From NCBI GenBank assembly GCA_964411675.1, contig CAYPLR010000002.1, forward strand, positions 25,536 through 89,535: a stretch of DNA of 64,000 nt. The letters are read 5' to 3'. Source of the stretch: an uncultured Bacteroidales bacterium. Lineage in GTDB: Bacteria > Bacillota_I > Bacilli_A > ML615J-28 > CAG-698. Shown piece by piece: positions 5,637 to 52,830 of the stretch (position 1 is the stretch's first letter; each line of letters begins with the position of its first letter). The notes below the pieces were generated by a model, which was not told where the DNA came from, ran no database searches, and worked only from the letters and a program-made list of their open reading frames with translations. Both the position numbers and the translations under genes were made by a program.

Positions 5637-6221
5637 ATGGAAATTAGGAAAAATGAAAAGTTACGTGAATATGAAGTTGAAATGTTACAATTAAAGGATC
5701 ATTATTCAAGAGAGTATCATACCATTACCAGTTATTACTGGCCAATAATTGCTCAAAACAAAAAAAGCTTGAAAAACCAAATTTACTATACTGGTGCAAT
5801 GATATGCATGCTTGTTTTTTTTGTTGTGATTATTCTCCTTGGAGGATTAAAAAACGAATATCTTTTATGGGGAAGCATAGTTTTTAGTCTTGTGTTAATC
5901 GGAGTAGGAGCAATTGTTACAACAAAAACATTAAAGAAAAAGAAAATCATTACAGAAGAATGGGACAAAAGCAATAAAAAAGTTCAAGAAATTCAGGAAA
6001 AGATTCACATGGTTGCTATCAAAGCTACTGAAGAAATTCCCTATGTTATTTTTTATAGTGAACACTATGAAGATATTATTTCAAAAAAGCTACAGGAAAA
6101 CAGTGAAGAATGGAAGAATTTAATCGAACAGGAAAAACAAAAAATGCTAGACTATACGGCAGGATCTATGGCATATAATGATGTAATCGGATATTATAAT
6201 CATTGGTCAGATAATTTCTAA
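5637..6221 (+). CDS. hypothetical membrane protein (2 TM)
   Basis: 194-aa ORF, RBS GTAGGAG, extended -10 TGgTAGAAT upstream. TM segments MICMLVFFVVIILLGG and IVFSLVLIGVGAIV. Confidence 0.5.
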   Translation: MEIRKNEKLREYEVEMLQLKDHYSREYHTITSYYWPIIAQNKKSLKNQIYYTGAMICMLVFFVVIILLGGLKNEYLLWGSIVFSLVLIGVGAIVTTKTLKKKKIITEEWDKSNKKVQEIQEKIHMVAIKATEEIPYVIFYSEHYEDIISKKLQENSEEWKNLIEQEKQKMLDYTAGSMAYNDVIGYYNHWSDNF

Positions 6222-6226
6222 CAAAT

Positions 6227-6258
6227 TAAGCACTTGATAAGTCAAGTGCTTTTCTTAT
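6227..6258 (+). terminator. rho-independent terminator
   Basis: AAGCACTTGA-taa-GTCAAGTGCTT followed by TTTCTTAT. Confidence 0.7.
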
Positions 6259-6332
6259 GGAAAAAAATTATTATATTCAAAGCAAACATTAAAAAAATTT
6301 GGTATAATAGTATAAGTTAAAAAGAGGTTACT

Positions 6333-7475
6333 ATGAAGAGAGTTTTATTATTAATCAATTTTTTAATCATGATATTGGTACTTATGGGTTGTAATGCTAG
6401 TCAAAGTAAAGTATATGATTTAAATTTTGATATGTATTACAACACAGTAAATAATGTAAAGATTGTATCTACAGTAAGAAACGAAGATAAATTAGAAAGA
6501 GTATATGAAGGAATCGAAGAAATTTTATTGCGAATTGATCGCTTGTTTAATGTTCAAATACAGGAAGATCAATACGAAACAGAATTAATGTTGGTTAACG
6601 AAAATGCGGGTATCAAGCCTGTCGTAGTAAGTGATGAAATAATCTTTGTTTTAAAGAAGGCACTGGAGGTTGCAAAACTATCTGAAGTTGATGGTGTAGC
6701 ATTATTTGATCCTACAATTGCTCCAGTATGGGATTGCTGGAATTTTATAGAATCTTATTATAGTATTTATAATCCCATTATTGGAACAGTACCTGATGAC
6801 ATTGAAGAGGTTTTACCACTGGTTGATTACCGAAAGGTTATGATTGACGAAGTAGAAAAAACAGTTTTCTTGGAGATGGAAGGAATGAAACTGGATCTAG
6901 GTGGAATTGTAAAGGGATATGTAGCGGATTGCATTCGTACCTATTTACAAGAAGAAGGATTTCAAGATGCGGTAATTGATATTGGAAAGAACATCATTCT
7001 TATGGGAAAGTATCAAGGAAAGGGTTGGAAAACCTCTCTACAAACTCCCTATATCGAACGTTATAACCACTCTCAAGAAGAACAAATGTATTATTATGGG
7101 AGATTGTATTTAAGTGATAAGACGATAGTAACTTCAGGGGTTTATGAAAAATATATCATGGATAAAGACCAAAAAGAATACCATCATATATTAGACCCGC
7201 GAACAGGATTTCCTTTTGATAATTCGGTCATTAGTGTTAGCGTGATTACCGATTCATCGATTGATGCAGATGGGTATAGTACAACACTATTGGCATTAGG
7301 ATTGGAAAAAGGAATGGAATTAGTGAATAAAACAAAAGGATTAGAAGTCATATATGTGATTAAAAATCAGGACAAATATGAAGTATATATTTCTAAAGGG
7401 CTGTTAGATCAGTTCGAATTTAATGAAAATGTAAAAAGTTTAGGTTATGAATATAAAGGAGTTTTTGGTGAATAA
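6333..7475 (+). CDS. apbE: FAD:protein FMN transferase (ApbE family) lipoprotein
   Basis: Signal peptide with lipobox LMGC. ApbE core GGIVKGYVADCIRTYL and the C-terminal ApbE motif region. Extended -10 TGgTATAAT at 6300-6308 and RBS AAAGAGG. Confidence 0.8.
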   Translation: MKRVLLLINFLIMILVLMGCNASQSKVYDLNFDMYYNTVNNVKIVSTVRNEDKLERVYEGIEEILLRIDRLFNVQIQEDQYETELMLVNENAGIKPVVVSDEIIFVLKKALEVAKLSEVDGVALFDPTIAPVWDCWNFIESYYSIYNPIIGTVPDDIEEVLPLVDYRKVMIDEVEKTVFLEMEGMKLDLGGIVKGYVADCIRTYLQEEGFQDAVIDIGKNIILMGKYQGKGWKTSLQTPYIERYNHSQEEQMYYYGRLYLSDKTIVTSGVYEKYIMDKDQKEYHHILDPRTGFPFDNSVISVSVITDSSIDADGYSTTLLALGLEKGMELVNKTKGLEVIYVIKNQDKYEVYISKGLLDQFEFNENVKSLGYEYKGVFGE

Positions 7476-33626: not shown

Positions 33627-33711
33627 GGTGGGGTAGCGAAGTGGCTAAACGCGGTGGACTGTAAATCCACTCTCTCCGAGTTCGGTGGTTCGAATCCACT
33701 CCCCACCACCA
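33627..33711 (+). tRNA. tRNA-Tyr (GTA), type II with long variable arm, CCA encoded
   Basis: Acceptor GGTGGGG/CCCCACC, anticodon loop cTGTAAa, long extra arm CTCTCCGAGTTCGG, T-arm GGTTCGAATCC. Confidence 0.9.
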
Positions 33712-33765
33712 TTATTCTCTTTACGTTCTAAAAAGTACCTTTATGTACTTTTTATGACAGGTTGT

Positions 33766-33841
33766 AGGGCTATAGCCAAGCGGTAAGGCAACGGACTTTG
33801 ACTCCGTCATTTCTCTGGTTCAAATCCAGATAGCCCTGCCA
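33766..33841 (+). tRNA. tRNA-Gln (TTG), CCA encoded
   Basis: Acceptor AGGGCTA/TAGCCCT, D-arm AGCCAAGCGGTAAGGC, anticodon loop cTTTGAc, T-arm GGTTCAAATCC. Confidence 0.9.
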
Positions 33842-34149: not shown

Positions 34150-35622
34150 ATGAAAAAAATCTATACAATATGTTTCGTTTTATTAGGATTATTACTATTG
34201 TCAAGCTGTAAGCCAGAAAAAGAAGTAAGTAGCATTGAAGTAATTATGGATAAAGTCATGTATAATATCGAGGATTTTTCATTATCAGATATCAAGATAA
34301 AAGTAAATTATGGTGATAATTCAAATGAGACCATTCCTCTAGATAAAAGCATGATTTCAAGTGAAGACCAAACTCGCCTTAAAACACCTGGGTATTACTA
34401 TATTTGGGTTAATTACAAGGGAAAAGCAGCAGAAATGGAGATTTACTTAGCAATCGTTCATACAGTCAGTTTTGGAGAAATTTCTCAAGTAGAAGTAGTT
34501 GATGGAACCTATGTATGGAAGCCAATAGATCCGCAACAAGAAGGGAAAATTTTTGAAGGATGGTACTTAGATAGTGCTTTAACAATCATGTATAATTTTG
34601 ACACAGCGGTTACTTCCGATTTGAAACTTTATCCTAAGTGGTATGAGCAATCAATGGATACTTCCGATTTTATCATTGAATATACTTATTATGGATATAG
34701 TGTTGTGAGTTATTTAGGAAACGATCAAACAATTATAATCCCTACTACTTATAATGATGGGATAAATGGTTCTGGTCCAGTAGTTAGAATTGCTGATGAT
34801 TTATTTAGAGAAAATAGTGACCTTATTAGTGTTACCTTACCGAATAGTATTCAATATATTGGTGAATTTGCATTTGGCTATTGTGACTCATTACAAACAA
34901 TAAATTTTCCGAATGGACTTTTGGAAATTGATGATTATGCGTTTTATTCGTGTACAAGTCTACAAAACATAACATTACCTAATACAATAACAAAAATTAA
35001 TAAAGGAACCTTTGCAGATTGCGATACATTAACAACAGTGATCATTCCTCAAGGAGTTGAAAGAATAGAAAATAGTGCTTTTAATGATTGTGATAGTTTA
35101 GTAACAATTAGTTTTCCTCAAAGCTTAATCGCGCTAGGAGAAGAAGTATTTATGCATTGTCCCAATATTAAAACAATTTCACTTCCTAATAGTGTTACAG
35201 CTGTTGGCCAAGGAGCATTCAACGAATGTGATGGTTTAACTAGTATTACTCTTTCAAATAATTTACAAGCAATTGATGCATGGACTTTTGCTTATTGTTC
35301 AAGTTTGACTAGTATCAATCTTCCAACTGGAATTACTGAAATAGGAAGTTATGCTTTTACAGAAGCAACGGGTATTACGAGCATTACACTTCCAGCAACG
35401 GTAACCAAAATAGATTTTGGAGCTTTTGAATACTGCACGGCTTTAAAAACTTTATTTATTCCTAGTAGTGTTATAACAATTACTGATTCTATAGCTGAAG
35501 GATGTAATGAATTAACAATATACTGTCAAACTGGTTCAAAACCATTAGGATGGAGTGAAAAGTTTAATCGTTTAGATTCGTGGGGTGGAGTAGTTACTGT
35601 TGTATGGGGGTATAATAATTAG
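34150..35622 (+). CDS. surface lipoprotein with Listeria-Bacteroides repeat and BspA-type leucine-rich repeats
   Basis: Lipobox LLSSC. The repeat EGKIFEGWYLDSALTIMYNFDTAVTSDLKLYPKW, then ~9 tandem about 23-aa LRRs of the form IPxxVxxIxxxAFxxCxxLxxI. Confidence 0.75.
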   Translation: MKKIYTICFVLLGLLLLSSCKPEKEVSSIEVIMDKVMYNIEDFSLSDIKIKVNYGDNSNETIPLDKSMISSEDQTRLKTPGYYYIWVNYKGKAAEMEIYLAIVHTVSFGEISQVEVVDGTYVWKPIDPQQEGKIFEGWYLDSALTIMYNFDTAVTSDLKLYPKWYEQSMDTSDFIIEYTYYGYSVVSYLGNDQTIIIPTTYNDGINGSGPVVRIADDLFRENSDLISVTLPNSIQYIGEFAFGYCDSLQTINFPNGLLEIDDYAFYSCTSLQNITLPNTITKINKGTFADCDTLTTVIIPQGVERIENSAFNDCDSLVTISFPQSLIALGEEVFMHCPNIKTISLPNSVTAVGQGAFNECDGLTSITLSNNLQAIDAWTFAYCSSLTSINLPTGITEIGSYAFTEATGITSITLPATVTKIDFGAFEYCTALKTLFIPSSVITITDSIAEGCNELTIYCQTGSKPLGWSEKFNRLDSWGGVVTVVWGYNN

Positions 35623-35852: not shown

Positions 35853-38800
35853 ATGAATCTTAAAAAAACAATTCTGGTTATTGATAAAGATTATCAAGAA
35901 TCTATTTTTTTAAACGATTTTTTAGCTAGTGAATTTGATGTTTTAACAATCAATGATGAATGTATCATAAATAATATAATCAATACCCAAAAAGAAAATT
36001 TGTTAATCATTTTAATTAGTGATACATTTATGAATGAAAATATTACAAGCAAAGGTGTTATTGATAGAATTAAGGCTCTAAAAATTCCTTTATTGGGAAT
36101 TGTGAGTCAAAAAGGGAATGGCGAAGAAAAAAAATTCTTAGACTTAGGAATTATTGATCTTTTATATAAACCCTTCACTTATGGCGATGTTTTTGGGGAA
36201 ATAGTAAATATCGTTAAAAAAGACAAAACTCAAAAACAATTACAACTTATTATGGATAATATTACTGGAGGAGTTTTGCTTATTGATGTGGGAGAAACCC
36301 TTCGATGTTTATATGTAAACCAAGGCTTTTTTAGTTTTAGTGGGTATAGTGAAGAAAAATATCATCAAAACATGCAAATAGATATTGCAAGATATATTTT
36401 TTCTGAGGATGAACCTTTTGTAAGAAACCAATTAACACAAGCTGTAAAGGATAATAAACCTTTTTCTTTTGATTTTCGTACAACAATTAAAGAAAATGAA
36501 ATTAGATGGTTTTATGCACAAGGAACACCAATAAAAGATAATGAAACTACAGATTCGATGGTATTGGTTTTATTAACTGATATAACAAAATTAAAGAATG
36601 CCGAAGAAGAACTTTCACGAACTTCCTCTCAGTTGTCAATGATTATCAAAAATTTAAACTGTGGAATTGCCATTTTTTTATTAGATGAAGATATTGAACT
36701 ACTTTATGGGAATGGAACTTTATCAAAATTAATGGGATTTAAAAATGATGAAATTCGCAATTTATCAAGCGAATCCTTATCAAAATGTGTTTATGAAAAA
36801 GATTTTGAGAAATTTAAAAAGTATTTAAAAGAAGCTAGCCAAGAAAAAACAGATTCAAAAATAGATATAAGATTTATAAAAGGAAATGCAACCATTAACT
36901 GGGTTCGATTTAACGCGGAAAGAATCAGTGAAAATAGCAATAAATCATTAGTATACGGTATATTCTTAGAAATTAATAAGGAAAAAGCTCAGGAAGAGCA
37001 TACACAAAAAACAACAGAAGAACTAACATATCGTGCCAACTATGATTTATTGACAGGCGTTTTTAATAAAACAGCATTTTGTAATGCTACCTATACGATG
37101 CTTAAAATTTATCCTCAGAAGAAATTCATTCTTACTATGTGGAACATCGAGCAATTTAAAATTATTAATGATTTATTGGGAATCAAAACAGGAGATAGAA
37201 TTTTACAAATAATCGCTAATCGTTTTGCAAACATATTATCTGGTCAAGGTACTTATGCTCGAGCTGAAGCAGATCACTTTGTAACGTGCTTTCCAAAAGA
37301 TCAATTCGATGTTGAAGAAATCTTAAATGATATCGTTAATAGTATTGGACAATTGAAAATACAAAATCAAATTAGAATTGTTGCAGGAATCTATGAAGTA
37401 GATGATATTAATATTCCTGTTGAACAAATGTGTGATCGTGCAGCATTAGCTATGCAGACAATTAAAGGAAAATTCTTAAAGAACTTTGCTTATTATGATG
37501 ATCATTTGCGACTGAGCCTAGTTGTAGAGCGAGAGATTGTTAACGAAATGATACAAGCAATTGAGAATCGAGAATTTACAATTTACTTACAACCAATTTA
37601 TAGTCTTGCAAAGAATGAAGTAATCGGTGCAGAAGCATTAGCTAGATGGATTCACCCTCAAAAAGGAGTCATCAGCCCAAGTGTATTTATTCCTGTTTTT
37701 GAAAGAAATGGGTTTATTGCAAAATTGGATTACTATATTTGGGAAGAAACATGCCGTTATATTCGTAAACGAATGGATGAAAATAAGAAACTGATTCCTA
37801 TTTCTGTCAACGTATCACGATTAAGTTTATATAATCCTTTTTTGTGCGAAGAAATTGTTGAATTGATTGATAACTATGGAATAAATCATAATTTATTACG
37901 CTTTGAAATTACAGAAACAGCGTATAACGATAATCCAAAACAATTATTATCAACAATCAGTAAAATGAAAAAAGAAAAACTAAAAATTATGATTGATGAT
38001 TTTGGTAGTGGATATTCATCATTGAACGCATTGAAAGAAATACCAGTAGACATTATCAAAATGGATATGAAGTTTCTAGAAGGAGTAAAAGAATCGAATC
38101 GTGCTGATAGTATCTTAACTTCTGTTATTAGAATGGCAAAATGGATAGACAATCCAGTGATTGCTGAAGGAGTAGAGACAGAGACACAACTACATTTCTT
38201 GAAGAGTATTGGTTGTGATCGAATTCAGGGATATTATATTTCTCCGCCATTACCAGTAGAACAATTCGATAAATATCTTGAATCGAATCCTAAAGTATAT
38301 ATCGGAGAAGCACCCCTTCAATTGGTTGTCGATCAACTTGATTTAGGTGCACTATTCAGTGGGAATCCACTCTTGACTTATTTTTTAGATAACATCGCAA
38401 GTGGTGTAGGAGTTTATGAATTTTATAAAGGGAATTTAATTGGACTTAGAGTTAATAATGCTTACTATAAAATCATGGGTTACACGAAAGAGACCTTCTT
38501 GCAAGATGCAAAAAGCATTTTACAACAAGTTTATGAAGAAGATAGAAAAAAACTTATCGATGCTTGTAAATTAGTAATTAGTAATAAGAAACCAGAAAAA
38601 TTATTATTTAGAAGATATCGTGCCGATAAAGTAATTATCTGGTTGGATTCAAATATTAATTATTTAGGTGGATCAAAGAAAAAGCCTTTGATATCGATTA
38701 CTATTAGTGATGTTACTATTAGTGTTCAAGATAGAAAACTATTGAGTTATCAAGAAGAAACCATTATGCGATCATATCGTTTCCTAGCAAAATTATATGA

Positions 38801-40427
38801 TACGATTCCTTGTGGTATTATTCAGTTTACGTTAGCAACAAATCCAAAAGCAGTTGCTGCCAATCAGTCAGCATGTAAGATGCTTGGATATGCCAATGAA
38901 AAAGATTTTGTTGAGACTGTGGGGAAAGATCTTTCTAACCTTCTTGTAAAAGGAACAAATAAGTTTGTCAATAAACAAACATACAAGGAATTAAAAGAGG
39001 GAAAACAACTCAATTACGAAGTCGAGTTTAAAAAGAAAAACGGTAGTTCAGGTTGGTATCGTATCACGATCTATCAATTAACCAATGTTGAAGGAATAGA
39101 GGTAATTCAAGGAGTATTTATTGACTTTAGCGAAGATAAAACTAAATTGATTACCACGAAAGAAAACATCTCAATTTTAAATCGTTCTCTTGATTTTTTA
39201 AGAGTTGGGGTTGTTTGCTGGGAACAAGATAGCAAAATCAAGATTGCTTTAATCAATAAAAAAATGAGCGAAATGTTGGGTTATTCTCATCAAGAATATT
39301 GTAAATTATTCTCATCGGGTAAAATTGATAATAATACTAAAATAGAAGATCTTAAGTTTAATTATGAGGAATTGAAGAAACTCCAAAGCAACGAAGAAAA
39401 AGTTGTTGAATTAACTAGAAAAGATAATAGTAAAATTATTGCTAAGATTAATTTATCTATCGATACTAGCGAAGGACAAGATTCTTATCAAGCAACAGTA
39501 ATAGATATTACCAAAGAATATCAAGAAAACAAGGAAATAAACAGTAAAATTGATTTATATGAGAATTTATTGTGTATTCCTAAAAGCTATATATTCGATT
39601 ATAATATCAACAGCAAAGTTTTAAAATACTATAGGCCAGATAAAGAAGAAAATAAAGACACGAATATTGTTGAAAACTTCAACACAAAAATTGTGAAATA
39701 TAAAAATATACACGAAGATTATATTAAAGAATTCACAAAAATCTTCTTAAAAAAATACGAACAAGAAACGAAAGACAGTTTAGAATTTCTCGCCAAATTC
39801 AATAGTCCTGATTTCAATTGGTATCGTATTACTTATAAAGTTATTAAGGATGAAGAAAAAAAAGGTTTTCGTGTCATCGGTAGTGTTTGCAATGTTCATT
39901 CCGAAGTAGAAAAAGTAATCAGGATGAAAGAGCGTTCCCAAAGAGACATTATGAGTGGGCTTTACAATCGGGCAGTTACTGAAGAATTGATAAAAAGTAA
40001 ACTTTGTGAAATGAAAAGAAATGAAACATTTACTTTTTATATGATAGATATCGATCAATTTAAAGAAATTAATGATGAATATGGTCATTTAATTGGGGAT
40101 AGATTAATTTTAAAAATATCAAACATGTTAAAGCAAAAATTCGATTCTAAAGCAATCATAGGTAGACTGGGTGGGGATGAATTTGCGGTTTTATCTATGA
40201 CAGAAAACAGTGAAGAAAAAGCAATTCTTAAAGCAGAAGATATTCTTCAAGCGACAAGAGATTTGAGTAAAACAATGAATGTTAAGCTAAAAATTACAAC
40301 AAGTGTAGGGATAGCGATGGCTCCTCGCGATGGAAAAGCATTTAAGACACTATTTATGAATGCTGATAAAGCAATGTATAAAGCTAAAAACGAAGGAAAA
40401 GATTGTTGTAAGGTTTATCAAGACTAA
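35853..40427 (+). CDS. multidomain c-di-GMP turnover/sensor protein: REC-like - PAS - degenerate GGDEF - EAL - PAS repeats - GGDEF
   Basis: 1524 aa. N-terminal CheY-like fold (VIDKDY...LLIILISD...LYKPF). First GGDEF degenerate (RAEADHF in place of RxGGDEF; DID replaced by WNIE). EAL domain with all catalytic signatures (EALARW, QPIY, VNVS, FEITET, DDFGSGYSS, KMDMKF, AEGVET, QGYY). C-terminal GGDEF intact (RLGGDEFAVL). Extended -10 TGtGGGATAAT and RBS AAGAGGAAAA upstream. Confidence 0.85.
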   Translation: MNLKKTILVIDKDYQESIFLNDFLASEFDVLTINDECIINNIINTQKENLLIILISDTFMNENITSKGVIDRIKALKIPLLGIVSQKGNGEEKKFLDLGIIDLLYKPFTYGDVFGEIVNIVKKDKTQKQLQLIMDNITGGVLLIDVGETLRCLYVNQGFFSFSGYSEEKYHQNMQIDIARYIFSEDEPFVRNQLTQAVKDNKPFSFDFRTTIKENEIRWFYAQGTPIKDNETTDSMVLVLLTDITKLKNAEEELSRTSSQLSMIIKNLNCGIAIFLLDEDIELLYGNGTLSKLMGFKNDEIRNLSSESLSKCVYEKDFEKFKKYLKEASQEKTDSKIDIRFIKGNATINWVRFNAERISENSNKSLVYGIFLEINKEKAQEEHTQKTTEELTYRANYDLLTGVFNKTAFCNATYTMLKIYPQKKFILTMWNIEQFKIINDLLGIKTGDRILQIIANRFANILSGQGTYARAEADHFVTCFPKDQFDVEEILNDIVNSIGQLKIQNQIRIVAGIYEVDDINIPVEQMCDRAALAMQTIKGKFLKNFAYYDDHLRLSLVVEREIVNEMIQAIENREFTIYLQPIYSLAKNEVIGAEALARWIHPQKGVISPSVFIPVFERNGFIAKLDYYIWEETCRYIRKRMDENKKLIPISVNVSRLSLYNPFLCEEIVELIDNYGINHNLLRFEITETAYNDNPKQLLSTISKMKKEKLKIMIDDFGSGYSSLNALKEIPVDIIKMDMKFLEGVKESNRADSILTSVIRMAKWIDNPVIAEGVETETQLHFLKSIGCDRIQGYYISPPLPVEQFDKYLESNPKVYIGEAPLQLVVDQLDLGALFSGNPLLTYFLDNIASGVGVYEFYKGNLIGLRVNNAYYKIMGYTKETFLQDAKSILQQVYEEDRKKLIDACKLVISNKKPEKLLFRRYRADKVIIWLDSNINYLGGSKKKPLISITISDVTISVQDRKLLSYQEETIMRSYRFLAKLYDTIPCGIIQFTLATNPKAVAANQSACKMLGYANEKDFVETVGKDLSNLLVKGTNKFVNKQTYKELKEGKQLNYEVEFKKKNGSSGWYRITIYQLTNVEGIEVIQGVFIDFSEDKTKLITTKENISILNRSLDFLRVGVVCWEQDSKIKIALINKKMSEMLGYSHQEYCKLFSSGKIDNNTKIEDLKFNYEELKKLQSNEEKVVELTRKDNSKIIAKINLSIDTSEGQDSYQATVIDITKEYQENKEINSKIDLYENLLCIPKSYIFDYNINSKVLKYYRPDKEENKDTNIVENFNTKIVKYKNIHEDYIKEFTKIFLKKYEQETKDSLEFLAKFNSPDFNWYRITYKVIKDEEKKGFRVIGSVCNVHSEVEKVIRMKERSQRDIMSGLYNRAVTEELIKSKLCEMKRNETFTFYMIDIDQFKEINDEYGHLIGDRLILKISNMLKQKFDSKAIIGRLGGDEFAVLSMTENSEEKAILKAEDILQATRDLSKTMNVKLKITTSVGIAMAPRDGKAFKTLFMNADKAMYKAKNEGKDCCKVYQD

Positions 40428-43217: not shown

Positions 43218-43332
43218 TGAATGATTTAATTAAAATATCTTTCCTTTCATGATAAAATATGATAAGATAAAGAAAAGGAATGGGTGTGTTAGCATCACAC
43301 GAATTCTCATCGCCAAAAAAATGGAGGTGCCT

Positions 43333-44457
43333 ATGAGATATAGAATAGAGAAAGATTCGTTAGGAGAAAAAATTATTCCCGCTGAATCATATTTTGGAAT
43401 TCAAACTCTTCGCTCAAAAGAATTATTTCAAATAACAAAGCATGGTCAATGCCGCCAAAACATTAAGGCTTTTGCCCATGTGAAAAAAGCAGCTGCAAAA
43501 ACTAATCAAGAATTTGGTTTTATTCCTAAGGAAAAAGCAAATGCAATTAGTCTAAGCGCTGATGAGATATTGAATGGAAGACTTCATGGACAATTCGTTA
43601 CAGATTCTATTCAAGATGGCTATGGAATGGGAATGCATATGAATGCCTGCGAGGTAATCGCAAATCGAGCCAATGAGATGCTTGGTGGTGAAAAAGGTCG
43701 CTATGATAAAGTTGACCCAGTAGCAGATGTCAATTTGAATCAAGACAATGAAGAAGTAGTTGTACTAGCAGGAAAAATTACAACCATTCGATTAGTGAAG
43801 AAATTAATGACAGAAGCCAAGAAACTTGTGAATGCTTATTATGACAAAATCGAACAAGCTAATCTTGATAAAGAAGATCCAAAATCATTTGGGTATCAGT
43901 TGGCATCAATGGCAAGTATTTTAGAGAAAGATATCAAACGTCTCGACAAAGCACTAGACTCTATGTTAGAAATTCATTTTGGACTAGCTTTGAATCTTAA
44001 TGAAGAACAAGGAAGAGATGAATATTTAAAAAAATTTGTGAAGAACTTGAGTTTATCTAACAGTGAAAGCTACAACTATTCAAAAAACGCTTTAGATTCT
44101 ATTCGTAGTTTAAATGGTTTTATGATGGTTTCTTCTGTCTTAAAAAATATGATTATTAATTTTTCGAAAATAGCAAGCGATATGAAAATATTATCGAAAG
44201 AAGGAAAAATAAAAATCCCTCAAGTTCAGGATTTTCTAACATTTACGGATAATAATGTCGTTTTAGATATGGTTAGGCAAATCTCATTTTATATTATGGG
44301 AAATGATTTAACGATTTCTCGAGCAGTTGAAGAAGGAGATTTAGGAATCAACATCTTCAAACCAATGATCTTTGCTTGTTTATTTGAAAGTGCCAATTTA
44401 ATTAGAAGAGCTATTAGAACGGTTAGAGAAAAAGTAGTCGAACCAATGCAAATATAA
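43333..44457 (+). CDS. aspartase/fumarase-fold (fumarate-lyase superfamily) protein, truncated and catalytically degenerate
   Basis: N-terminus collinear with AspA/FumC (YRIEKDSLGEKIIPAESYFGIQTLRS; VKKAAAKTN). Signature catalytic blocks are altered (TS of GxxGTSxMN -> MGMHMN; SQSxND -> NQDNEE; no GSSxMPxKxN SS-loop). About 100 aa shorter than class II lyases. GGAGGTG sits 4 nt before ATG 43333. Confidence 0.6.
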   Translation: MRYRIEKDSLGEKIIPAESYFGIQTLRSKELFQITKHGQCRQNIKAFAHVKKAAAKTNQEFGFIPKEKANAISLSADEILNGRLHGQFVTDSIQDGYGMGMHMNACEVIANRANEMLGGEKGRYDKVDPVADVNLNQDNEEVVVLAGKITTIRLVKKLMTEAKKLVNAYYDKIEQANLDKEDPKSFGYQLASMASILEKDIKRLDKALDSMLEIHFGLALNLNEEQGRDEYLKKFVKNLSLSNSESYNYSKNALDSIRSLNGFMMVSSVLKNMIINFSKIASDMKILSKEGKIKIPQVQDFLTFTDNNVVLDMVRQISFYIMGNDLTISRAVEEGDLGINIFKPMIFACLFESANLIRRAIRTVREKVVEPMQI

Positions 44458-44491
44458 AAACTCCACTTATGTGGAGTCAGACTGATGACAA

Positions 44492-44663: not shown

Positions 44664-44687
44664 TGACTCCACTTATGTGGAGTTTTT

Positions 44688-52705: not shown

Positions 52706-52830
52706 GGTAATAATCTCGCTTTAAGTACCCATATTCAATATTAAGCAGTGAATCAGGTCAGGTCGTGATTGAAGCAGCCTTAAGCTTAACTTAGTATGTG
52801 AGTATGGGTACTTAAGGTGAGATTAATTAG
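52706..52830 (+). ncRNA. ffs: signal recognition particle RNA (small 4.5S/scRNA type)
   Basis: Conserved domain-IV sequence AUCAGGUCAGGUCGUGAUUGAAGCAGCC (cf. CCAGGUCAGGUCCGGAAGGAAGCAGCC). About 23-bp terminal helix UAAUCUCGCUUUAAGUACCCAUA / UAUGGGUACUUAAGGUGAGAUUA. The tadA-SRP RNA position is as in Bacillus. Confidence 0.8.

Follow-up and report, generated by a model that had tools for sequence, protein, structure and literature searches.

The 64-kb window analysed here (64,000 nucleotides of contig CAYPLR010000002.1, assembly GCA_964411675.1) carries at 43333–44457 of its forward strand a gene for a 374-amino acid (aa) homologue of aspartase (AspA). The product of this gene, referred to below as the short lyase, has the fold of the aspartase/fumarase superfamily and has lost the catalytic signatures, the SS loop and the C-terminal domain of these enzymes, and the gene is maintained under purifying selection in a large family of equally short and equally degenerate relatives. 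It is likely that the short lyase is a dead, folded and probably tetrameric pseudo-enzyme derived from an aspartase, which acts by binding or regulation and not by catalysis.

The short lyase is an aspartase homologue without the aspartase active site

The product matched the Lyase_1 family of Pfam (PF00206; E = 6e-24; score 85 bits, cut-off 27). Among solved structures, aspartases were its best matches (PDB 8rj1, 6wng and 1j3u/3r6y; E ~1e-56), the class II fumarase FumC (PDB 1FUO etc.) being a weaker match (E ~1e-42). The alignments from the structure database spanned residues 3–370 of the query and only about residues 5–391 of the 468–475-residue aspartases. The closest solved relatives by sequence, AspB of Bacillus sp. 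YM55-1 (1J3U/3R6V) and AspA of E. coli (1JSW), were ~30% identical to it overall and ~50% in the N-terminal domain. All the NCBIfam models for the enzymes remained below their cut-offs. The three aspA models TIGR00839, NF008909 and NF011092 scored 235.7 against 681.2, 270.7 against 510 and 214.2 against 876 bits, respectively, and the class II fumarate hydratase models TIGR00979 and NF009089 scored 183.1 against 664.75 and 134.4 against 840 bits.

For the residue comparison, the protein was aligned by HMMER with AspB (Bacillus sp. YM55-1), whose numbering (1J3U) is used for the enzyme, and 185 relatives from the same clade were compared as well. The features of the gene are as follows.

43333..44457, + strand: coding sequence of the 374-aa truncated, catalytically degenerate aspartase homologue (open reading frame [ORF], Pfam, substitution rates, AF2 model, Foldseek)
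43333..43737, + strand: N-terminal domain, residues 1–135, the best conserved part (64–69% identity to live aspartases of the clade)
43612..43644, + strand: degenerate signature 1, QDGYGMGMHMN where the enzymes have QGGAGTSxNMN (T101 to M99, S102 to G100)
43732..43755, + strand: degenerate signature 2, NLNQDNEE where the enzymes have VNxSQSTND (S140 to D138, T141 to N139, N142 to E140)
43771..43827, + strand: Lys-rich part of the first long helix in the bundle, GKITTIRLVKKLMTEAKKL (K148, K156, K157, E161, K163, K164)
43852..43881, + strand: site where a deletion of 9 residues took out the GRTH(LQDAVP) motif with T187/H188 (alignments)
44212..44271, + strand: SS-loop remnant, GSSIMPGKVNP replaced and shortened to QDFLTFTDNNV (Ser318 deleted, Lys324 to Thr)
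44278..44454, + strand: final pair of long helices in the five-helix bundle, QISFYIMGNDLTISR...REKVVEPMQI, with the C-terminus at the boundary of domains 2 and 3

The GGAGTSINMN of AspB was aligned to DGYGMGMHMN and its SQSTND to NQDNEE, with D143 being E141 in the window protein. The residues G317-S318-S319 of the SS loop were deleted and K324 was aligned to T305. Domain 3 (PF10415, FumaraseC_C) had no match, and the alignment ended at about residue 386–391 of the 468 in AspB. Thus, the window protein resembles AspB in its N-terminal domain and five-helix bundle and differs from it in having no domain 3, Ser318, Lys324, Thr187/His188, Thr101, Ser140, Thr141 or Asn142. In aspartase, Ser318 is the catalytic residue, the alpha-carboxylate pocket consists of Met321, Lys324 and Asn326, the active site is composed of residues from three subunits, and domain 3 of the neighbouring subunit flanks the SS loop and controls it (PMC11744663). 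Because the SS loop, the T/H motif, regions 1 and 2 and domain 3 have all been lost, every element needed for the known aspartase/fumarase chemistry is missing, and the window protein is predicted from its sequence to be incapable of either reaction.

A preliminary description of this DNA, made by reading its letters, had proposed an aspartase/fumarase-fold protein that aligns well over its N-terminal part, has all its catalytic blocks altered (GxxGTSxNMN to GYGMGMHMN and SQSxND to NLNQDNEE), has no GSSxMPxKxN SS loop and is ~100 aa short. The results above bear out each of these points, the length being 374 aa against the 468–475 residues of the enzymes with domain 3 absent. The concern that the manual alignment behind the preliminary description might have been shifted proved unfounded, as the Ser, His and Lys residues are indeed lost.

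The possibility of a split gene with a separately encoded domain 3 was rejected. The tblastn search with the C-terminal domains of clade aspartases found no remnant of domain 3 downstream of the gene or elsewhere in the window, the best match (E = 0.23) being at an unrelated place. Similarly, the idea that a FumC-like second dicarboxylate (B) site persists was rejected; the HPNDHVN motif of that site is VDPVADVN in the window protein, and the HPxDHVN segment is degenerate or deleted across the family.

The aspartase fold is predicted to be retained

The monomer model of the window protein built by AF2 with the family alignment had a predicted local distance difference test score (pLDDT) of 84.8 and a predicted TM-score (pTM) of 0.86. 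It contained an N-terminal beta-hairpin with helices followed by five long helices, the last two of which comprised residues 309–333 and 343–369. Foldseek matched this model to aspartases and fumarases with probability 1.0 and a query-normalised TM-score (TMq) of 0.85 (TM ~0.84 for FumC). When the score was normalised to the length of the target, the best match was the chymotrypsin-clipped AspB (3R6Y; TMt 0.82). The structure prediction proposed as a check in the preliminary description therefore recovered the aspartase fold. Because the five-helix bundle is intact in the model, the usual homotetramer of the superfamily, with its core of 20 helices, would probably still be formed through it. 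The last two bundle helices of the window protein were 61% identical to those of distant family members, as against 43% to the canonical forms.

The short lyases form a large family under purifying selection

When 5.8 billion proteins were searched, ~85 clusters (90% identity) of 353–397-aa homologues were recovered that were 47–92% identical to the window protein, along with full-length aspartases of 452–504 aa at 46–50% identity. The homologues all came from uncultured “Bacilli,” Acholeplasmatales or “Mollicutes” assemblies, and the public names of the members are “lyase family protein,” “aspartate ammonia-lyase” and “hypothetical protein.” The full-length proteins of the clade keep GGAGTSMNMN, SQS(T/A)ND, GRTHLQ(E/D)AVP and GSSIMPGKxNP, whereas the short ones have lost the four motifs and end at a common C-terminal position. 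A pattern-based scan of species representatives, with one genome per species and the metagenome-assembled genomes (MAGs) being incomplete, gave 80 loci from 80 different assemblies. When these were pooled with the window and other contigs, a table of 85 distinct proteins was obtained, of which 37 were short and 48 full length.

A neighbour-joining tree was built from 364 columns, and in it 31 distinct short sequences of 362–376 aa were monophyletic in every one of 100 bootstraps. This main short family is present in at least 31 species-level MAGs, and its sister group is made up of 448–467-aa proteins whose SS loops are altered, for instance to GSTINPGKINP. Six further short proteins were placed elsewhere, beside degenerate full-length forms, and the monophyly of all the short proteins was recovered in only 3 of 100 bootstraps. 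Since these six group apart from the main family, truncation and decay happened at least twice.

This second short set (363–392 aa), which lacks the TH and SS-loop motifs, includes the loci L067, L069, L077, L080, L083 and L084 and the proteins P0122, P0124, P0125 and P0133. In the six loci the lyase lies at ~6001–7130, and they group with the degenerate full-length forms L074, L082 and L086. In L077, the dead copy is followed after 10 bp by an M55 peptidase gene on the same strand. Full-length members of the clade (448–467 aa) with partly altered SS loops, including GSTINPGKINP, GSAMNPGKINP, ITSTSDPQKNNP and others, were found at L031–L033, L036, L040, L044, L052, L058, L061, L064, L065, L081 and L087 and in P0123 and P0127–P0129, and several of them also have changed TS or TH motifs. 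Judged from these motifs, the altered full-length members may be intermediates towards the loss of activity or enzymes with a changed specificity.

The window gene was compared with its four closest relatives (94–84% identity), and the non-synonymous rate (dN) was 0.03–0.11 with a ratio of non-synonymous to synonymous rates (dN/dS) of 0.024–0.049. The same ratio was 0.028–0.055 for the neighbouring serine hydroxymethyltransferase (SHMT) gene and 0.05–0.11 for the M55 peptidase gene, all these values being approximate with dS saturated (>1). The lyase gene is therefore under strong purifying selection like the adjoining SHMT gene. Since the selection is accompanied by a large monophyletic family of equally short and equally degenerate members, the term pseudo-enzyme, which the preliminary description had put with a question mark, is appropriate for this protein and the term broken gene is not; the catalytic signatures are gone, yet the gene is conserved in at least 31 genomes. 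A decaying pseudogene, gene fragment or assembly artefact, as might be suspected from a protein that falls ~100 aa short of every characterised aspartase and is devoid of all the motifs, is refuted by the intact 374-codon ORF with its ribosome-binding site, the same length and C-terminus in at least 31 genomes, the dN/dS of 0.02–0.05, a GC content like that of the window and the lack of a domain 3 remnant downstream.

Selection appears to have been relaxed at the old active site and kept elsewhere

The positional entropy of the short family was computed over 105 sequences. The former active-site positions 99, 138, 139 and 140 fell between the 68th and 99th percentiles, and the SS-loop remnant was the most variable region of the family with 2.70 bits, as compared with 0.42 bits in canonical proteins. 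Low values were found for residues 1–135 (~1.0 bit) and for the last two helices (1.17 bits), residues 311–374 being among the most conserved. At 75 positions, most of them within residues 1–164, dead and live members of the clade had an identical residue that was conserved to at least 90%. Only seven positions were conserved in the short family alone, and these were not clustered as polar residues around the former pocket. The identity of the window protein to live clade aspartases was 64–69% over residues 1–135 and 25% over residues 176–250. The residues K148, K156, K157, E161, K163 and K164 of the Lys-rich helix are common to dead and live clade members and are not conserved in AspB. This pattern of variability and conservation suggested that selection has been relaxed at the old active site and kept on something that the short lyases have in common with the live enzymes. 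A basic or nucleic acid-binding protein was considered and rejected, because the short family is no more basic than the canonical one (mean pI 7.5 against 7.8 for the full-length canonical proteins and 8.8 for their query-aligned region).

The short lyase occupies the genomic position of aspA

The genes around the short lyase in the window encode, in order, a GGDEF/EAL/PAS protein, a phosphoribosyltransferase, a GDPD protein, SHMT (glyA), the short lyase and a convergent M55 (DppA-like) peptidase, followed by an uncharacterised protein, YcxB, a pseudouridine synthase, DUF2207 and LemA; the position of LemA was assigned by synteny with locus L001 and the other genes were read in the window. The comparative context was drawn from homologues, as the exact window protein was absent from the contig index. 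The M55 gene was found convergent downstream in 26 of the 31 non-redundant family loci and at 150 bp or less in 17 of them. A gene for a 386–392-aa malic enzyme immediately preceded the lyase gene in 12 of the 31, in the same orientation and at a spacing of −4 to +24 bp, and all 12 belonged to the less degenerate subgroup with QGGxG in signature 1. At the canonical full-length loci L034, L038 and L075, malic enzyme, aspA and M55 follow one another on one strand. At 14 of 33 canonical loci, aspA and M55 had the same direction and were no more than 33 bp apart, and SHMT was found near both short and full-length lyase loci.

Because the short lyase fills the syntenic slot of aspA among SHMT, malic enzyme and M55, it is considered to have arisen in place and not as an extra paralogue; the gene appears to have descended in place from the aspA of an amino acid catabolic cluster of malic enzyme, aspA and M55 peptidase. 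The ancestral upstream neighbour is malic enzyme, the adjacency to glyA is lineage specific, and the subclade of the window protein, which has DGYG in signature 1, lost the adjacent malic enzyme later. Thus glyA is indeed immediately upstream as the preliminary description had noted, an arrangement restricted to this lineage. No second aspartase/fumarase gene was found in the 64-kb window, and no genome with both a short and a full-length copy was found among the 80 assemblies represented by the pattern-matched loci. The suggested search for a canonical aspA or fumC elsewhere, run on the window and these 80 loci, therefore revealed none beside a short copy. The protein had been described as a candidate non-catalytic paralogue, of which the first word holds with the loss of the signatures and the second probably does not, as the aspA slot is occupied and no assembly of the 80 has two copies. 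The short lyase is probably not a paralogue kept beside a live aspA.

Two fusions join full-length aspartases to malic enzyme and to an Asp-releasing hydrolase. One is a malic enzyme::AspA fusion (L090 4001–6637, P0138), whose operon also encodes an SDF transporter and Asparaginase_2; this fusion rests on a single contig and should be read with caution. The other joins a Peptidase_S51 domain (aspartyl dipeptidase family) to AspA (P0173). The aspartase part of both has a full Lyase_1 domain, and that of the malic enzyme fusion also has an intact SS-loop signature. Other aspartase fusions were to domains that bind cyclic nucleotide monophosphates (P0126, P0143) and to a methyltransferase domain (P0155).

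Further upstream in the window, a 1,524-aa multi-PAS GGDEF-EAL-GGDEF signalling protein (35853–40427) and a BspA-type protein containing leucine-rich repeats and a Listeria-Bacteroides repeat (34150–35622) are encoded within a few kb of the lyase. The cyclic di-GMP machinery is extensive for an Acholeplasma-like genome of 31.6% GC.

A proposed role in binding or regulation and its alternatives

In the explanation that we favour, the short lyase, having kept the N-terminal and five-helix-bundle domains and lost domain 3, the SS loop and the substrate-binding residues, would act by binding, as a scaffold or a regulatory subunit. Its binding surfaces would be those conserved in dead and live aspartases, namely the N-terminal domain, the face of the Lys-rich helix and the last two helices, with the Lys-rich helix put forward as a binding surface from residue conservation. 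Since these surfaces are conserved in live and dead members of the clade, a non-catalytic role may have been present already in the ancestral enzyme, and it is this role that selection would preserve. As a speculation, the ancestral partner could be the NAD(P)-malic enzyme, whose gene is translationally coupled upstream in 12 of 31 family loci and was found once fused to AspA. The M55 peptidase, the most persistent neighbour, is an alternative candidate that is just as speculative. These ideas can be extended to a second, non-catalytic function of aspartases in Acholeplasmatales and RF39-like bacteria, residing in the N-terminal domain and the Lys-rich helix and preserved while catalysis was lost at least two times independently. 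The products would be tetrameric, HisZ-like pseudo-aspartase regulatory subunits, for example of the co-encoded malic enzyme or M55 peptidase, in amino acid and C4-dicarboxylate catabolism. In this extended form the proposal is tentative, and we think it rather unlikely to hold in full.

Several observations weigh against a role in binding or regulation. Malic enzyme is not adjacent in the lineage of the window or anywhere in the DGYG subclade, and no malic enzyme gene was found within the 64-kb window. The M55 gene is not co-transcribed with the short lyase, as it is convergent. The family members all come from MAGs, and the dN/dS values behind the purifying selection are approximate. The conservation of the N-terminal domain could be due to folding and assembly alone. 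Lastly, the replaced loop QDGYG(Y/I/M/F)GM is conserved inside the DGYG subclade, to which the window protein belongs, and could by its sequence represent a new constraint in the old pocket, imposed by a new ligand or a new chemistry.

This last point leads to an unlikely alternative, a neo-functionalised enzyme in which the pocket has been rebuilt (Asp95, Tyr97, Met99/101, Asp138, Glu140/141) for a different, possibly cationic or hydrophobic substrate. The DGYG subclade shows conservation of both QDGYGxGM and NQD..E, the backbone of the Gly-rich loop (G96, G98, M101, N104) is invariant, as is the next helix (NAxEVIANRA), and the superfamily can evolve new chemistries, as in the Tad1 decarboxylase (PMC11880804). 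However, the contributions of other subunits to the composite, three-subunit site (PMC11744663), the TH and SS loops, are deleted or hypervariable. Across the whole family the presumed pocket also varies, with Y/I/M/L/N at position 99, D/N/S/T/G at 138 and R/D/N/K/E at 140, and the seven positions specific to the short family do not cluster there as polar residues.

A bulk structural or moonlighting role, as a crystallin-like abundant protein or as a surface adhesin of these wall-less or thin-walled bacteria, has a precedent in the superfamily in delta-crystallin. Aspartase is also counted among the surface moonlighting proteins of bacteria (e.g. PMC6604927, PMC10341603). We nevertheless give this role a low probability, because no signal peptide or membrane segment was seen on direct reading of the sequence, the helices fit a cytosolic fold, and a setting in cytosolic metabolism is suggested by the tight translational coupling with malic enzyme at 12 of the 31 loci.

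The short lyase might instead join a full-length, active aspartase or fumarase from elsewhere in the genome as the regulatory or structural subunit of a heterotetramer, giving fewer active sites per tetramer. The tetramerisation bundle is kept, and mixed tetramers are conceivable since the active sites of the superfamily are shared among subunits (PMC11744663). This arrangement is nonetheless very improbable: the window holds no second member of the superfamily, the short gene fills the aspA slot and does not lie beside aspA, and the last two bundle helices have diverged to 43% identity with the canonical forms. The absence of a short and full-length pair among the 80 assemblies points the same way, although the scan, being pattern based and made on incomplete MAGs, is a weak test. 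A pseudo-enzyme that binds or regulates a partner was therefore retained as the best explanation.

Expression signals and downstream hairpins

The ORF starts at ATG 43333, its stop codon ends at 44457, and its GC content is 32.5% against 31.6% for the window. The signals found around it are as follows.

43260..43268, + strand: candidate extended −10 element TGATAAGAT, pattern TGnTAnnAT, in the glyA–lyase spacer (conservation)
43323..43327, + strand: ribosome-binding site GGAGG, 5 nt 5′ of the ATG (direct reading; invariant in five relatives)
44459..44478, no strand assigned: terminator hairpin, copy 1, in relatives common to the lyase and the convergent M55 gene; + strand without a T-tract
44665..44684, no strand assigned: terminator hairpin, copy 2, identical, followed by a T-tract on the + strand

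The pattern TGnTAnnAT and the GGAGG are the only conserved blocks of the spacer in five relatives (the window and L010–L013). The strong ribosome-binding site claimed for the gene in the preliminary description could thus be read directly and is invariant. Because the TGnTAnnAT block is conserved, transcription of the lyase gene on its own is plausible, and the element at 43260–43268 would function as its putative promoter, as judged from the sequence pattern. A consensus scan also gave a promoter-like site at 43230–43258. An upstream in-frame ATG at 43249, which would give a 402-aa ORF, was rejected as the start because every homologue begins with MRYRIEKD and the ribosome-binding site adjoins 43333. 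The Rfam search found no riboswitch or leader in the glyA–lyase spacer; its only matches at the gathering threshold in the whole window were two tRNA genes and a small signal recognition particle RNA (33627–33838, 52722–52817).

Downstream of the gene, an 18-nt hairpin, ACTCCACTTATGTGGAGT, occurs twice, at 44460–77 and 44666–83, where no such repeat is expected by chance. The two copies flank an insert of ~188 bp that is unique within the window and contains further hairpins, AAACTACCTTTT...AAAAGGTAGTTT, GAGCGTTGACTTTGTCAACGCTC and CCCCACAAGGGGG. L010 and L011, which are the closest relatives, have just one copy of the hairpin, and it takes up their entire 27–28-bp spacer. The arrangement in the window looks like an insertion with duplication of a bidirectional terminator, and the insert is possibly a small mobile element or a small RNA locus. 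The gene had been credited with a terminator of its own. A hairpin does stand directly after the stop codon; the T-tract is missing there and present only at the second copy, and the hairpin is common with M55, so that the claim holds in part.

Comparison with known systems and implications

By fold, the short lyase belongs to a known superfamily, but it failed every hallmark of the catalytically competent families that was tested. The full-length aspartases of the same Bacilli clade (L034, L038, L075; 474–475 aa) are 45–50% identical to it overall and lie in a similar neighbourhood of malic enzyme, M55 and SHMT; they differ in keeping the four signatures and domain 3 and in having M55 adjacent and co-directional. 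FumC has the superfamily and fold in common with the window protein and is more distant than the aspartases. The clipped AspB 3R6Y also has no C-terminal domain and retains the fold, but it is an in vitro proteolytic product with its catalytic residues in place, whereas the window protein is a natural truncation without them. In the list of Foldseek matches, the integrative model of an EF-Ts–AspA complex based on cross-linking mass spectrometry (PDB 9a75) may be a lead to non-catalytic partners of aspartases.

Delta-1 crystallin is an inactive homologue of argininosuccinate lyase from the same superfamily that has a bulk structural role in the bird lens. It is the nearest precedent for a superfamily member kept, like the window protein, for a non-catalytic role, and differs in being full length and eukaryotic and in keeping the catalytic residues and the SS loop. 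HisZ is a dead, truncated paralogue of HisRS that serves as the regulatory subunit of short HisG. The analogy is that HisZ is derived from an enzyme, has lost the C-terminal domain and catalysis, and is encoded by a gene that adjoins or overlaps that of its partner, as malic enzyme and the short lyase do at 12 of the 31 family loci with their gap of −4 to +24 bp. The fold of HisZ is, however, unrelated, the window has no adjacent malic enzyme gene, and a complex with malic enzyme is only a candidate. No description of a truncated bacterial aspartase family without the motifs was found in the literature searched, which omits most subscription journals.

The findings bear first on annotation. 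Many members of the family are called aspartate ammonia-lyase, and metabolic models would thereby credit RF39/Acholeplasmatales-type MAGs from gut, rumen and digesters with an aspartate-to-fumarate step that they almost certainly lack. Furthermore, the clade offers a graded natural series from canonical aspA through full-length forms with altered SS loops and short forms with GGSG/QSS remnants to the DGYG forms, together with a second, independent short lineage, and this series is well suited for asking what selection keeps in an enzyme fold after catalysis has been lost. If the retained function is indeed the binding of malic enzyme or M55 peptidase, the short lyases would represent a new kind of regulatory subunit of central metabolism in genome-reduced bacteria.

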